Shown here: in pieces, positions 55,616 through 64,000 of the stretch | Layout of the letters: each line of letters opens with the position of its first letter | How positions within the stretch are numbered: position 1 is the stretch's first letter | Source of the DNA: an uncultured bacterium | GTDB taxonomy: Bacteria; Krumholzibacteriota; Krumholzibacteriia; LZORAL124-64-63 | NCBI GenBank assembly: GCA_963732385.1 | Contig: CAVSZB010000006.1 | Coordinates: forward strand, 82,357 to 146,356 | DNA: 64,000 nucleotides | Reading direction: 5' to 3' | Notes under the pieces: generated by a model | Told to the model about the DNA's origin: nothing | The model's database searches: none | What the model saw: only the letters and a program-made list of their open reading frames with translations | Program-made: the position numbers and the translations under genes

Positions 55616-56779
55616 TCACTCCGGGATCAGGCCCAAATCTCGCCAGCCCAGCAACCTGATGCCCTGCCGCGAACCGTTCACTTCTCCGCCGGTGACGAGG
55701 TACTGCCTGCCCACGAGATCGCCTGCCTGCTTCGCCCACAGTTCGAGCCCGCGCGTCAGGCTGCCGACGACCGTAGCGCCCGCTTTGATCTCGATAGTAT
55801 CGACCCTGGCGCCTTTCTGGCGCAGCAGATCGATCTCGTGGCCGTGATTGTCCCGCCAGAAAAAGAGGTCCGCGGGCAGGCCCCGGTTGAAGCGGTTTTT
55901 CAGGAATTCGCCGACGACCAGGGTCTCGAACAAGGCGCCGCGCAGCGGATGGGTCGCCACCTGGCCGGGATCCTGGATGCCGATCAGGTGGGCTGCGAGG
56001 CCCACATCGAGGAAGTACAGCTTGGGCGACTTGACGAGTCGCTTGCCGAGATTCGCGTGATACGGCGGCAGGAGCGTGATGATGTAACTGGCCTGAAGGA
56101 TGGATAGCCACCCGCGCACCGTCGCCGGGCTGACCCCCGCATCGGAAGCCAGGCTCGCGGTGTTCAGGAGTTGGCTGGTTCGCCCGGCGCACAGCCGCAG
56201 GAATCTCTGGAACAGCGTCAGATCCCGCACGGCCTGGATCTGCCGCACGTCGCGCTCGAGGTAGGTGTTGACGTAGTTGGCGAGCAGGAGGGTGGGGGCG
56301 ATGTCACGGTCATACAGTGCCGGATAGAGGCCGCGATAGAGCATCAGGTCCAGGTTCGCCGGGACGAGCCGGGCGGTCGTCAGCTCAGCGATCGAGAGCG
56401 GCAGAAGGGAAACCGCGCCCACGCGGCCCGCGAGCGACTGGGTGATGCGTTCGTTCAACCCGAACTGCTGTGAACCGGTGATGACGTACATCCCCATCCG
56501 GCGCGCCGCGTCGGCCCGGACCTGGAGGTGGGAGAACAGTTCGGGACAAAGCTGGATCTCGTCGAGGATCACGCCGTCAGGGAAGCGGTCGAAAAAGCCG
56601 ATCGGATCGTCGGTCGCCCACGTCCTCTCCTGCGGAAGTTCCAGGGAGATGCAGGCGAGTTGCGGAAACGCCTTCTGGGCCAGAGTCGTCTTGCCGGACT
56701 GCCGCGGACCGGTCAACGAGACGATCGGAAACCCGCGAGCAAGGGTTTCGAGCAAACCAGCAGCCGTACGGGGGATCAT
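55616..56779 (-). CDS. AAA_14 ATPase with DUF4143 domain
   Basis: GPRQSGKTT, LDEIQ, TGSQ, SLAGR, YLERDV, KSPKLYFLDVG, EIDL..IEIK. Confidence 0.92.
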   Translation of the reverse strand: MIPRTAAGLLETLARGFPIVSLTGPRQSGKTTLAQKAFPQLACISLELPQERTWATDDPIGFFDRFPDGVILDEIQLCPELFSHLQVRADAARRMGMYVITGSQQFGLNERITQSLAGRVGAVSLLPLSIAELTTARLVPANLDLMLYRGLYPALYDRDIAPTLLLANYVNTYLERDVRQIQAVRDLTLFQRFLRLCAGRTSQLLNTASLASDAGVSPATVRGWLSILQASYIITLLPPYHANLGKRLVKSPKLYFLDVGLAAHLIGIQDPGQVATHPLRGALFETLVVGEFLKNRFNRGLPADLFFWRDNHGHEIDLLRQKGARVDTIEIKAGATVVGSLTRGLELWAKQAGDLVGRQYLVTGGEVNGSRQGIRLLGWRDLGLIPE

Positions 56780-57082: not shown

Positions 57083-60000
57083 TCATCCCCCCGCCTTCTC
57101 CCTCAGCACCCCCAGATACTGCTCGTCAGTCGGCAGCATGACCCCCCGCTGCTTCATCCCGGCCAGCTGCTCGTATGCCTTGCGCCACCAGACCTGTGCG
57201 TCGCCCTGGCCCGCCTTCTCAGCGATATCGGCCATGCGCCAACAGGAGACAACGAGGTCGCGCTGCCAGCCCGCGTTCGAAGGATCGGCCGCGGCCAGAC
57301 GCTCTCGAACCCCCAGGGATTCCCGGTAGGCGTTGAGGGCGCCCTGCAGATCGCCCTGGGCAATCAGCACGTCGCCGATTCGCTCCTGGCTGACCGACAG
57401 GTCGCGCTGCCAGCCCGCGTTCGAAGGATCGGCCGCGGCCAGACGCTCTGCGCACCCCCAGGGATTCCCGGTAGGCGTTGAGGGCGCCCTGCAGATCGCC
57501 CTGGGCAAGCAGCACGTCGCCGATCTTGTTATGGCTGACCGACAGGTCGCGCTGCCAGCCCGCGTTCGAAGGATCGGCCGCGGCCAGACGCTCTGCCACC
57601 CCCAGGGATTCCCGGTAGGCGTTGAGGGCGCCCTGCAGATCGCCCTGGGCACGCAGCACGTCGCCGATCTTGTTCTGGCTGACCGACAGGTCGCGCTGCC
57701 AGCCCGCGTTCGAAGGATCGGCCGCGGCCAGACGCTCTCGCACCCCCAGGGATTCCCGGTAGGCGTTGAGGGCGCCCTGCAGATCGCCCTGGGCAAGCAG
57801 CACGTCGCCGATCTTGATATGGCTGACCGACAGGTCGCGCTGCCAGCCCGCGTTCGAAGGATCGGCCGCGGCCAGACGCGCAATGATTGCGCGTTTACGG
57901 TCATAGGCTTGTCGCGCTTCACTGAGGTCGCCCTGGGCAAGCAGCACGTCGCCGAGTCGTTCGTGGCTGATACCCAGATCGTACTGCCAGCCCGCGTTCG
58001 AAGGATCGGCCGCGGCCAGACGCTCTGCCACCCCCAGGGATTCCCGGTAGGCGTTGAGGGCGCCCGCCAGATCGCCCTGGGCAAGCAGCACGTCGCCGAT
58101 CTTGTTCCTGGCTGACCGACAGGTCGCGCTGCCAGCCCGCGTTCGAAGGATCGGCCGCGGCCAGACGCTCTGCCACCCCCAGGGATTCCCGGTAGGCGTT
58201 GAGGGCGCCCTGCAGATCGCCCTGGGCAAGCAGCACGTCGCCGATCTTGTTATGGCTGACCGACAGGTCGCGCTGCCAGCCCGCGTTCGAAGGATCGGCC
58301 GCGGCCAGACGCTCTCGAACCCCCAGGGATTCCCGGTAGGCGTTGAGGGCGCCCGGCCAGATCGCCCTGGGCAAGCAGCACGTCGCCGATCTTGATCCTG
58401 GCTGACCGACAGGTCGCGCTGCCAGCCCGCGTTCGAAGGATCGGCCGCGGCCAGACGCTCGCACACCGCCCAGGGACTCCCGGTAGGCGTTGAGGGCGCC
58501 CTGCAGATCGCCCTGGGCAAGCAGCACGTCGCCGATCTTGTTCCTGGCTGACCGACAGGTCGCGCTGCCAGCCCGCGTTCGAAGGATCGGCCGCGGCCAG
58601 ACGCTCTGCCACCCCCAGGGATTCCCGGTAGGCGTTGAGGGCGCCCTGCAGATCGCCCTGGGCAAGCAGCACGTCGCCGATCTTGTTCCTGGCTGACCGA
58701 CAGGTCGCGCTGCCAGCCCGCGTTCGAAGGATCGGCCGCGGCCAGACGCTGCAGGACCGCCAGGTACTCCCGGTAGGCGTTGAGGGCGCCCTGCAGATCG
58801 CCCTGGGCAAGCAGCACGTCGCCGATCTTGTTCCTGGCTGACCGACAGGTCGCGCTGCCAGCCCGCGTTCGAAGGATCGGCCGCGGCCAGACGCTCGAGC
58901 GATTGACGCGCGGCCCGGAGCAAGTCGAAGCGGGGGCCCTCGGTCCGTGCTTCACCCGTGATCGCCAGGGCGTCGTTGAGGTCGAAAATGACGACATTGG
59001 CCACAAGGCCGGCGCGTTCGTCGTTGTCACCCTGCATCAACTCCGCGATCCACTCGGTCAGCCGCGCACGCGCCGCGTCGTCCGTGGCGGACTGGACGGC
59101 CTGGACCATGACGGCAACCGCGGCGGCGAGGGCGGACTTCGCCTCGGCATCGCTCCACTGGAGCTGCCTGAATCGTCCCCAGATAGTTTGCCGCCCGGTC
59201 GCGGTCGCCAAGGCCGATCAGATGGAACATGCTCTCGCCGATGCGCAGGGGGTCGCCGGGCGGCAGACCCTCGAGATGCCCGGCGATGAGACCGTGCAGA
59301 CGGCGGCGCCCCGCTTCTTCCGCCAGATCGCGGCGCAGCACGGTGTCGCGCAGCGCGGCGTGGAAGTAGTCCCACTGCGCCTGGGCGCCGCGCTGGACGA
59401 CATGCGTGCCCGAGCGCCCGGCGCACGTCCGCGAAGGCCAGGTCGTCCCAGGGCTTTCCCGAGACGACCGGCATGAGTCCGCGCAGATCGCTCTCGCGCC
59501 AGCCGGCCCGGCTGACGGCGATGAGCGCCGTGAAAGCGCCGGCCCAGGCCTGGCCGAACCCCCGCTCGGCACGGTCGAGCAGCTCGCCGTACACGCCGGG
59601 CACGTCGGCGGGCAGCTTCTGCGCCTCGTCCAGTTGCAGCGCCTGCATGCGCTCGGCGCCGGCCAGGTGCGCGTACTCGCGCTCGGCGCGCTCGAAATCG
59701 TCGGCTTCGAGCAGGTTCATCTCCTGCAGGGCCAGGGCCAGCCAGAGGGGATTGCCGTGCGCCGGGCTGCCGTCGGGAAGCTGCTTGGCGAGCAGGGCGT
59801 CGAGCACTTGCGGGTTGGTGTCGCGATGGTGCCGCTCGCGGTAGAAGCGCCGGGCGATCTCGCGGGCCTCCTCGGGGGTGACCGGCGGCACCGGCAGCTC
59901 GCGGCAGCCCGGCCGCTCCGCGAGCGTGGCCGTGGCCTGACCGGGAATCGCCGTGGCGATGAACCGGGCGTTCTCGGGCCAGAGCCTCGGCAGCCAGGTC

Positions 60001-63000
60001 ATGTGCTGGGCGCGGACCGTCGGCTCGAACTGGTTGAGCGCGTCGACCAGCACCACGACCCGGCGCTGCGTGGCCGCCTGGCCCAGGAGCGAGGCGAAGG
60101 CCTTGTCGATCTCTTCGGCGGTGGCCCCGGCCGCTTCCTGCGCGCGGCGAGCGTCTTCGGTCTCGGCCACCTGCGGGGAGACGGGCCGCTCGAGCGGATC
60201 GGGCCGGCCCAGAGTCGCCGCGAGCTCTGACACCCAGCGCCGCAGCATGCGGTCCACCTGGCCGGACATCGGAAAGATACCTGCCGCATGGGCGAGCAGC
60301 ACGATCTCTCCCGACACCGAGCGCGGCTGCAGCGCGTCGTACACGCGACCGAAGAGGCTGCTCTTGCCGCCGCCCGACTCGCCGGTGACCGACAGGCCCC
60401 ACACCGCATCTGGTGATGTCGGGCTGAGCGCATGCTCGAGCATGGGGTCGGTGACGGCCGGCCGCTCCACGTAGCCCCGCTTGCGCTCGGCCACGAAGTC
60501 GGTCACCGCGCGGGCATCGGCCTCCTGCCACGTCCTGGGCGCCTCGCGCAGATAGGTGGCCGTCTCGGCGTCGAGGTCGGTCCACAGGTCGGCGCTGACC
60601 TGCCGGTCGAGTTCGTCGAGCCCGGTGAGCTCCTGTTTCGCGGTGTCCCAGCGCAGGGTGTAGTCACGCACCCGGTCGGGCATTTCGCGGCGGATGCGCT
60701 CCTTGAGCGCGCGCAGGCGGCCGGCGGGCGAGTCGGGATCGTCGCTGGGCTGTTCGGCAGGGAAGTGCGCGGACACGGCCGGGGGCATATTCGCGCGGTC
60801 GAGCGTGCGGAAGTAGAACCAGCTCCGCTTGCGCTGGTCGGGGTTCTCCAGCACCGCGTAGAGGATCTCCAGCTCGGTCACGCTGCGGCCGACGACCTCG
60901 ACCGAGTCGGGCAGCCCGGCGTCGCGGGCGGCGGCAGCGATGCGGGCGGCGGGCGGAATCCAACCGTAGCGATCGCCGAGCAGGGCCACGAGAAACGGCT
61001 TCGAGCGCTCGATCTCGTCGAGGCAGACCTTGAGCACCTGCATCTCGCGCGTGGCCTCGTCGGCCTCGCCGACGCTCTCGACGCCCTGGCGCAGGTCGAT
61101 GGTGTCCAGGTAGTGGCACCGTTCGCGAAGCTGTTCGGCCAGGCGGGGAAAGCCGTTGTCGCGCAGGTGATCCCGCTCGGGATGCATGTCGCGGAACGTC
61201 GACGAGATGAAGATCGGGCGGGCTTTCCATTCCCGGTAGGCGTTGAGGGCGCCCTGCAGATCGCCCTGGGCAAGCAGCACGTCGCCGATCTTGTTATGGC
61301 TGACCGACAGGTCGCGCTGCCAGCCCGCGTTCGAAGGATCGGCCGCGGCCAGACGCTCTCGAACCCCCAGGGATTCCCGGTAGGCGTTGAGGGCGCCCTG
61401 CAGATCGCCCTGGGCAAGCAGCACGTCGCCGATCTTGATCTGGCTGACCGACAGGTCGCGCTGCCAGCCCGCGTTCGAAGGATCGGCCGCGGCCAGACGC
61501 TGCATACCGATCTGGTACTCCCGGTAGGCTTTCAGGGCGCCCTGCAGATCGCCCTGGGCAAGCAGCACGTCGCCGATCTTGATCATGGCTGACCGACAGG
61601 TCGCGCTGCCAGCCCGCGTTGGAAGGATCGGCCGCGGCCAGACGCTCGAGCGATTGACGCGCGGCCCGGAGCAAGTCGAAGCGGGGGCCCTCGGTCCGTG
61701 CTTCACCCGTGATCGCCAGGGCGTCGTTGAGGTCGAAAATGACGGCGTTGGCCACGCGGCCGGCGCGTTCGTCGTTGTCACCGTGCATCAATCCGCGATC
61801 CACTCGGTCAGCCGCGCACGCGCCGCGTCGTCCGTGGCGGACTGGACGGCCTGGACCATGACGGCCACCGCGGCGGCGAGGGCGGACTTCGCCTCGGCAT
61901 CGCTCCACTAGAGCGCGCTGAATCGTCGCCAGATAGTTTGCCGCCCGGTCGCGGTCGCCAAGGCCGATCAGGTGGAACATGCTCTCGCCGATGCGCAGGG
62001 GGTCGCCGGGCGGCAGACCCTCGAGATGCCCGGCGATGAGACCGTGCAGACGACGGCGCGCCGCTTCTTCCGCCAGATCGCGGCGCAGCACGGTGTCGCG
62101 CAGCGCGGCGTGGAAGTAGTCCCACTGCGCCTGGGCGCCGCGCTGGACGACATGCGTGCCGAGCGCCCGGCGCACGTCCGCGAAGGCCAGGTCGTCCCAG
62201 GGCTGTCCCGAGACGACCGGCATGAGTTCGCGCAGATCGCTCTCGCGCCAGCCGGCCCGGCTGACGGCGATGAGCGCCGTGAAAGCGCCGGCCCAGGCCT
62301 GGCCGAACCCCCGCTCGGCACGGTCGAGCAGTTCGCCGTACACGCCGGGCACGTCGGCGGGCAGATGCTGCGCCTCGTCCAGTTGCAGCGCCTGCATGCG
62401 CTCGGCGCCGGCCAGGTGCGCGTACTCGCGCTCGGCACGCTCGTAATCGTCGGCTTCGAGCAGGTTCATCTCCTGCAGGGCCAGGGCCAGCCAGAGGGGA
62501 TTGCCGTGAGCCGGACTGCGGTCGGGAAGCTGCTTGGCGAGCAGGGCGTCGAGCACTTGCGGGTTGGTGTCGCGATGGTGCCGCTCGCGGTAGAAGCGCC
62601 GGGCGATCTCGCGGGCCTCCACGTGGGTGACCGGCGGCACCGGCAGCTCGCGGCATCCCGGTCGCGCCGCAAGCGTGGCCGTGGCCTGGCAGGGAATCGC
62701 TGTGGCGATGAACCGGGCGTTCTCGGGCCAGAGCCCCGGCAGCCAGGTCATATGCTGGGCGCGGACCGTCGGCTCGAACTGGTTGAGCGCATCGACCAGC
62801 ACCACGACCCGGCGCTGCGTGGCCGCCTGGCCCAGGAGTGAGGCGAAGGCCTTGTCGATCTCTTCGGCGGTGGCCCCGGCCGCTTCCTGTGCGCGGCGAG
62901 CGTCTTCGGTCTCGGCCACCTGCGGGGAGACCGGCCGCTCGAGCGGATCGGGCCGGCCCAGAGTCGCCGCGAGCTCTGACACCCAGCGCCGCAGCATGCG

Positions 63001-64000
63001 GTCCACCTGGCCGGACATCGGAAAGATACCTGCCGCATGGGCGAGCAGCACGATCTCTCCCGACACCGAGCGCGGCTGCAGCGCGTCGTACACGCGACCG
63101 AAGAGGCTGCTCTTGCCCCCGCCCGACTCGCCGGTGACCGACAGGCCCCACACCGCATCTGGTGATGTCGGGCTGAGCGCATGCTCGAGCATGGGGTCGG
63201 TGACGGCCGGCCGCTCCACGTAGCCCCGCTTGCGCTCGGCCACGAAGTCGGTCACCGCGCGGGCATCGGCCTCCTGCCACGTCCTGGGCGCCTGGCGCAG
63301 ATAGGTGGCCGTCTCGGTGTCGAGGTCGGTCCACAGGTCGGCGCTGACCTGCCGGTCGAGTTCGTCGAGCCCGGTGAGCTCCTGTTTCGCGGTGTCCCAG
63401 CGCAGGGTGTAGTCACGCACCCGGTCGGGCATTTCGCGGCGGATGCGCTCCTTGAGCGCGCGCAGGCGGCCGGCGGGCGAGTCGGGATCGTCGCTGGGCT
63501 GTTCGGCAGGGAAGTGCGCGGACACGGCCGGGGGCATATTCGCGCGGTCGAGCGTGCGGAAGTAGAACCAGCTCCGCTTGCGCTGGTCGGGGTTCTCCAG
63601 CACCGCGTAGAGGATCTCCAGCTCGGTCACGCTGCGGCCGACGACCTCGACCGAGTCGGGCAGCCCGGCGTCGCGGGCGGCGGCAGCGATGCGGTCGGCG
63701 GGCGGAATCCAACCGTAGCGATCGCCGAGCAGGGCCACGAGAAACGGTTTCGAGCGCTCGATCTCGTCGAGGCAGACCTTGAGCACCTGCATCTCGCGCG
63801 TGGCCTCGTCGGCCTCGCCGACGCTCTCGACGCCCTGGCGCAGGTCGATGGTGTCCAGGTAGTGGCACCGTTCGCGAAGCTGTTCGGCCAGGCGGGGAAA
63901 CCCGTTGTTGCGCAGGTGATCCCGCTCGGGATGCATGTCGCGGAACGTCGACGAGACGAAGATCGGGCGGGCTTTCCAGACCAGGGCGGATGCGGGGGTG
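57083..64000 (-). CDS. Giant NLR/STAND-like protein: [DUF4062-NTPase-3xTPR]-[DUF4062-NTPase-12xTPR]; start beyond window; several single-base frameshifts
   Basis: F(I/V)SSTFRDMHPERD, LLGDRYGWIP, SVTELEI (DUF4062); GESGGGKS and VVVLVDALNQ each twice; 48-aa TPR units; stop at 57083. Confidence 0.85.
57257..58890 (-). repeat. Tandem array of 12 x ~144-bp TPR-coding units
   Basis: Unit anchors at 57257, 57401, 57546, 57690, 57834, 57978, 58123, 58267, 58413, 58559, 58704, 58849. Confidence 0.95.
58890..63978 (-). repeat. Tandem duplication of ~2.3-kb DUF4062-NTPase module (offset ~2749 bp)
   Basis: 58890-61229 is nearly identical to ~61640-63978, with scattered substitutions. Confidence 0.95.
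61230..61650 (-). repeat. Internal array of 3 x ~144-bp TPR units (last truncated at module junction)
   Basis: Anchors at 61311, 61455, 61600; AYRE fused in frame to WKARPIF at ~61230. Confidence 0.93.

Follow-up and report, generated by a model that had tools for sequence, protein, structure and literature searches.

A tandemly doubled NIR-NTPase-TPR receptor gene at the end of a metagenomic contig: paired receptor or concatenated alleles?

At the end of the stretch of DNA analyzed here (the window, 64,000 nucleotides, forming the final part of the 146,356-base contig C6 in a 3.8-Mb assembly of nine contigs) a receptor gene is assembled with its entire effector-NTPase module present twice. 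Does such a locus encode a single paired receptor, does it record a real but accidental doubling, or did the doubling arise during assembly? An earlier note on this DNA had proposed a covalently paired two-sensor NLR. This is not the most likely reading, given the position of the gene at a contig tip, the mixed-consensus character of its indels, the linker-less join between the modules, and the absence of the design among 279 relatives taken from the best database matches. The evidence favors the counter-case that the same note had named, in which sequences from two strains or paralogues were joined chimerically. In the form given slightly better than even chances here, the assembler concatenated two alleles, present together, of an ordinary receptor with a single module. 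The likelihoods attached to this reading and to the three others discussed below are matters of judgment.

Two receptor units at the end of a contig

As assembled, two units of 2.75 kb, each containing a DUF4062 (NIR) domain, a STAND NTPase, and TPRs, lie head to tail on the minus strand, copy 1 at 63978-61230 and copy 2 at 61229-58478 (Table 1). The tandem duplication of the effector-NTPase module described in the earlier note is present in the assembled sequence, the copies being 97.6% identical over 2,753 aligned bases (60 mismatches and 6 gaps); a third copy of the unit was found nowhere else in the 3.8-Mb, nine-contig assembly. The in-frame fusion of AYRE to WKARPIF, expected at about 61230, was located at 61230/61229, with one shared base and no linker. 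All five differences between the copies that had been named are present (codons 8, 24, 229, 430, and 538), Walker A, Walker B, and SVTELE are seen in both copies, and the count of three TPRs after copy 1 and 12 after copy 2 was confirmed, the third of the former being cut and the last of the latter a terminal cap. The proposed span, 58890..64000, does hold the duplication but omits part of the TPR array, which continues to 57083. A product of roughly 2300 residues, proposed on the premise that the indels are errors, agrees with the 2,294 codons between the first W and the stop provided that every indel is an error; read literally, the frame from the contig end yields only 901 residues, and no continuous open frame passes through both modules, 13 indels intervening. 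Copy 2 together with its tail comprises 1,378 codons.

Table 1. Coordinates of features at the C6 end of the window
Feature	Coordinates	Strand	Evidence or remark
Contig C6 tip, end of N-terminal linker TPASALV, start codon absent	63979..64000	-	relatives, runs X1/X2
Copy 1 NIR (DUF4062), putative catalytic Glu121 in SVTELE (63633-63616)	63574..63978	-	PF13271, 11gz_A
Copy 1 STAND-type NTPase and helical region; Walker A 63132-63109, Walker B 62808-62779	61642..63573	-	
Copy 1 TPRs: three 144-nt units, the third ending after 41 of 48 codons at AYRE	61230..61641	-	
Junction of the tandem units	61229..61230	-	in frame, one shared base
Copy 2 NIR (DUF4062), SVTELE (60884-60867)	60825..61229	-	PF13271
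Copy 2 STAND-type NTPase and helical region; Walker A 60383-60360, Walker B 60059-60030	58891..60824	-	
Twelve TPR units of high internal identity, terminal cap, then stop	57083..58890	-	
Downstream neighbor: intact AAA_14 + DUF4143 ATPase, match to PADLOC candidate system PDC-S01	55616..56779	-	context only

Both DUF4062 domains score above the Pfam cut-off of 24.7 for PF13271 (45.5 bits in copy 1, 46.3 bits in copy 2), and residues 1-218 match the NIR domain of human TEP1 (PDB chain 11gz_A, E=1.3e-20), with SVTEME aligned to SVTELE. Glu121 of both copies, invariant in eight aligned sequences, is aligned with residue 115 of this chain, which would be TEP1 E1008 if the 220-residue chain consists of two extra residues followed by 896-1113; the catalytic glutamate appears to be kept in both copies. 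In the NTPase region the Pfam match to AAA_16 lies just below cut-off (E from 3e-7 to 5e-7), and that to NPHP3_N is weak and likewise below cut-off. Present in both copies are GESGGGKS, VVVLVDALNQ, FIATA, and GNPLWL, which we take to be Walker A, Walker B, and downstream NTPase motifs. The 48-residue unit of the window matches the C-terminal arrays of relatives and owes its TPR label to their Pfam scores (the arrays of P0001 and P0002 score as TPR). Twelve of the 13 full units differ from one reference unit by no more than 11 substitutions and vary at a few codons. The unit at 57876-58019 (YDLGISHERLG type) differs from the others by 31 substitutions, and a similar unit in a protein from genome G016 hints at an old second repeat class in the array.

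DUF4062 has been renamed NIR, and in the available portion of the study concerned it depletes NAD+ in PsAvs2, Vulcan, Vesta, and TEP1 by way of one glutamate (E1008 of TEP1, E108 of PsAvs2), some NIR proteins being without activity (10.64898/2026.09.04.749371). An anti-phage NADase action may be predicted for the present gene from its sequence. The assignment of the gene to effector-STAND-TPR immune receptors made in the earlier note is borne out by DUF4062 scores above cut-off, by the TEP1 match (E=1e-20), and by the anti-phage NADase role that the available portion of the same study gives to DUF4062 (10.64898/2026.09.04.749371). Neither copy matches any of the PADLOC 2.0 families, Avs profiles included, at E<=0.001; this lowers the case that the protein is an Avs, not the case that it works like one.

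Divergence of the copies, the contig tip, and the indels

Over 605 indel-free codons the copies differ by 33 substitutions, 18 of them at third positions (p=0.01); 16 codons differ synonymously and 15 non-synonymously, and pN/pS is 0.32 (Fisher p=0.002). The copies are real diverged alleles under purifying selection, not read noise. The relatives of about 91% identity are equidistant from both (204 vs. 204; 76 vs. 77), while among sites compared with eight distant outgroups 29 favor copy 2 as ancestral, 14 favor copy 1, and 6 are ties. Campbell-type single-crossover integration, considered on account of an allele switch, was not relied upon, the closer relatives being equidistant from both copies.

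It is very improbable that one copy merely reproduces the same molecule from one noisy read and that the doublet is a false duplication of a single allele. Error-rich contig tips do occur elsewhere in this assembly, but their changes are neutral as to codon position and their indels reach 14 per kb, whereas the enrichment of third-position (18/33, p=0.01) and synonymous changes, with no indel in 1,815 bases, rules out read noise as the source of the differences between the copies. These are the first 1,815 bases of the unit, and the C6 tip is not of raw-read quality. The overlapping, error-rich tips are those of C9 against C4 and C7. Contig C9 (17,853 bases) is almost wholly redundant, overlapping the C4 end over 8.2 kb and the C7 start over 9.2 kb at about 98%, and since it overlaps both, the three contigs are probably one stretch with noisy tips. 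C9 was also considered as a strain haplotig; this was rejected, its differences from C4 and C7 being codon-neutral and indel-rich.

Base 64000 of the window is the last base of C6; the assembly therefore lacks the start codon, and only 22 bases separate the duplication from the contig tip. It is the first conserved residue of the unit that sits at this tip, and relatives carry only a short variable linker before that residue; sequence from X1 and X2, the two sequencing runs holding the 91%-identical relatives, matches up to 63995. Synteny with both congeners suggests that the C6 end joins the C7 end across an accessory-gene hot spot, the gene content of which differs in both congeners. The end of C7 coincides with the last codon of an intact 529-residue frame (L030, in the last 1.6 kb), presumably HerA/DUF853-like, and the ends of C6 and C7 are both abrupt and well polished.

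Thirteen single-base indels, 12 insertions and one deletion, are found between 62,000 and 57,500. Nine lie in TPR units, and all nine are insertions at codons that vary between units, eight in the array of copy 2 (57083..58890) and one (+1) near 61585 in copy 1. Those in the helical region are at ~61916 (+1) and ~61792 (-1) in copy 1 and at ~59411 (+1) and ~59166 (+1) in copy 2. The extra base at 61916 and 59166 falls in the same column of both copies and is absent from all eight outgroup loci, and the X1 contig is without the extra bases of the helical region. As literally read, copy 1 has a TAG at 61910 in the downstream frame, which is abolished by shifting the extra base.

The background was taken from 400 kb of a congener, in which 242 frames were called; 153 of these could be compared by alignment, and 142 of the 153 genes are without frameshift in this genome. 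Of 38 frameshift events, 26 (25 of them insertions) fall in one single-copy gene at C7:348,700-356,400. This gene encodes a GH94/glucoamylase-domain giant, the congener's version of which is intact, and a smaller patch of seven events lies at C7:1,416,400-1,423,400. The breakage of the giant gene is likely a consensus-merging artefact that could mislead on other stretches, and its insertion bias in a single-copy gene would fit mixed alleles in the sample. In 8.6 kb of neighboring DNA there are three non-triplet indels, outside the likely coding parts. At the receptor locus the indels are probably consensus errors, and the evidence suggests that a polisher here merged different alleles or mixed molecules. 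Since reads cross-mapping between true duplicates also yield such insertions, the indel signature alone separates no case.

Concatenation of two alleles by the assembler is consistent with a unit that starts at its first conserved residue 22 bases from the C6 end, with a join at the edge of conservation on both sides, with the mixed-consensus signature of 12 insertions among 13 indels, with copies that differ as alleles do and are equidistant from the 91%-identical relatives, and with overlapping error-rich tips elsewhere in the assembly. Long-read assemblers have been documented to concatenate subpopulation variants and give false duplications, according to the available text of 10.1101/2025.04.22.649783. 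The copies, however, share only one base at the join, which a simple overlap mis-join does not produce. A 6-base microhomology beside the join was set aside, 9.9% of 5,000 random contexts matching equally well. The join is moreover in frame (one in three by chance) with clean sequence on either side, and insertions at variable sites may also come from cross-mapping (the C3 doublet described below has three single-base indels).

If two alleles were concatenated, the product of the real gene would be about 1,380-1,400 residues long, comprising NIR, the STAND NTPase, and ~12 TPR units. By analogy with PsAvs2 and other STAND receptors, its TPR array would bind a phage protein and the NTPase would then oligomerize; clustered NIR domains might in turn cut NAD+ to ADP-ribose and nicotinamide via Glu121, stopping the infected cell. 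Near-identical TPR units with few variable codons likely shuffle, which would change specificity and would also account for reads disagreeing here.

Relatives and other doublets

Relatives were gathered by two word-index searches of long proteins (best 120 of 598 and best 120 of 150) and by an exhaustive protein search (best 150 of 8,606 representatives at E<=0.001), together giving 348 proteins. Among these best matches none of the 279 NIR-bearing relatives has two NIR domains, and in 268 of the 279 NIR starts no more than 100 residues from the N-terminus; two NTPase domains occur in one of 277 (P0207, NIR-NTPase-WD40-NTPase). At the DNA level, all 11 related loci show one NIR and one NTPase match, several of their contigs ending within the TPR array. 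Among 200 further genomes of the phylum, three have a single match apiece, and the two congeners have none. The two sequencing runs with related sequence (shares 0.09 and 0.06) provide ~91%-identical relatives as contigs only, among them a single-module 15-kb contig from X1 (~91%). Contigs of X1 and X2 do not bridge the junction, and they represent other genomes than this one. The closest genome relative, L015 (G016:C12:92000-109702, 81%), is a single module in a 1,451-residue frame, with neighbors that are defence-like by inspection and a second TPR gene with similar repeats directly downstream. A doubled DUF4062/NTPase receptor was not found in the literature searched; the supplements of 10.64898/2026.09.04.749371, outside that scope, could list one. 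A term search of the available text of PMC13581612 returned no DUF4062 and no relevant use of "tandem".

That doubling is seen in none of the 279 relatives, 11 loci, and three matching phylum genomes favors concatenation, as does the length of copy 2 with its tail, which is sized like the closest long relatives (1,237-1,551 residues, top 19 of one word-index search). So too does the linker-less join within a cut TPR repeat, unlike P0091 and P0100, natural TPR-before-NIR fusions in which the linker is about 20 residues or more. On the other side, most relatives come from short contigs and from the best 120-150 matches of each search, and as a doublet at 98% identity would collapse in short contigs, the lack of doublets among them is only moderate to weak evidence; the family also has multi-module fusions (P0207, P0179). 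P0207 (2,617 residues, on five contigs) is arranged NIR-NTPase-WD40-NTPase-TPR-like, with two divergent NLR modules, while P0179 (2,883 residues) has CHAT, TIR, NB-ARC, and nSTAND matches, those to NTPase and TIR domains being several. These two are better candidates for real multi-module bacterial NLRs. P0122 (2,675 residues) was rejected as a precedent, having one NIR, one NTPase, and a long TPR array.

An intact double receptor of ~2,300 residues, in which the covalent link would provide part of the oligomer in advance or tie two TPR sensors together, is unlikely, and the chain NIR-NTPase-TPR-NIR-NTPase-TPR that it implies, two diverged alleles in one polypeptide with a single NAD+-destroying output, is doubtful to the same degree. 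The in-frame join exactly at the NIR boundary, the catalytic motifs all kept in both copies, the look of the indels as consensus errors, and the two-NTPase fusion on five contigs (P0207) would suit it. The first sensor, however, has fewer than three repeats, cut in mid-repeat and uncapped, with no linker to the NIR domain that follows; the design occurs in 0/279 relatives; and copy 1 as literally read has the TAG at 61910, removable by shifting the extra base. A tandem unit of 97.6% identity should also collapse by recombination unless selected, which counts against a double receptor.

The doublet may instead be real but accidental, a merodiploid formed by recombination with a second allele or a fusion of neighboring paralogues by deletion. 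It would then be unstable, broken, or confined to some members of the population, and would not be under selection for a two-sensor function. This is possible, though appreciably short of probable. A clean in-frame join with one shared base, purifying selection on both copies before joining, and an accessory-gene hot spot varying in both congeners speak in its favor, and two further doublets of ~97% occur in the assembly (C8 410758-415870; C3 78433-84024). It leaves unexplained, though, why the contig should end 22 bases from the edge of the unit; the doublets on C8 and C3 might go back to a common assembly fault; and closer relatives did not confirm the allele-switch pattern that had pointed to single-crossover integration.

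The C8 and C3 doublets are 2.2-2.6 kb in size at ~97%. On C8 (L051) a tandem pair of intact genes of ~840-860 residues, presumably secreted protease-like, is 96% identical; each congener has the gene only once, and the pair is either a real duplication or a second concatenation. The C3 doublet (L052) consists of two neighboring secreted-protein genes with a common 2.15-kb 3' part at 97% identity and three single-base indels, and there is one copy at the locus of G001. With one C8 gene in either congener and one C3 gene at the G001 locus, these doublets may have a common origin in the assembly, or may be real.

Significance and comparison with known systems

The underlying gene is a further NIR-NTPase-TPR receptor, and NIR is already known as an anti-phage NADase. 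Should the join be an artefact, the gene is in no way exceptional within its large family (8,606 representatives at E<=0.001), itself explained only recently, and the locus serves as a warning that NLR genes with near-identical TPRs at metagenome contig tips can be assembled into architectures that are false. Should the join instead be real, with an intact frame, the product would be the first in the set examined here to carry the NIR-NTPase module twice, and it would offer a natural means of studying how the activation threshold depends on NIR clustering and on the stoichiometry of the STAND oligomer; a true double receptor would be NLR module multiplication caught in the act.

The assembly errors described in the available text of 10.1101/2025.04.22.649783 resemble the present locus in placing two variants in a row between shared flanks, and the frame-breaking indels there were unsupported by reads; those errors were diagnosed by read clipping and with PacBio data, whereas here the assembled sequence alone was used. 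Fungal and bacterial NLRs having repeats of high internal conservation shuffle their arrays and are hard to assemble, as far as the available portions of PMC11761791 and 10.1101/2020.01.06.895854 describe them. The array of the window is similarly near-identical, with variation at few codons, and its consensus is itself unreliable. P0207, P0091, P0100, and P0179 likewise have extra modules fused to an NTPase-repeat protein, but in these NIR is never repeated and the modules are divergent. With PsAvs2, Vulcan, and Vesta, as presented in the available portion of 10.64898/2026.09.04.749371, the gene shares an N-terminal DUF4062 on a STAND NTPase, C-terminal TPRs, the position of the glutamate, and an adjoining defence-candidate gene. 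It differs from them in lacking a PADLOC Avs match and in its near-identical 48-residue TPRs, and a doubled module is not described for those systems in that portion (10.64898/2026.09.04.749371). Human TEP1 (11gz_A) shares the NIR domain, the likeness to an NPHP3-type NTPase being weak and below cut-off; TEP1, however, is part of the vault and telomerase particles, whereas the gene of the window is bacterial and carries a TPR sensor.
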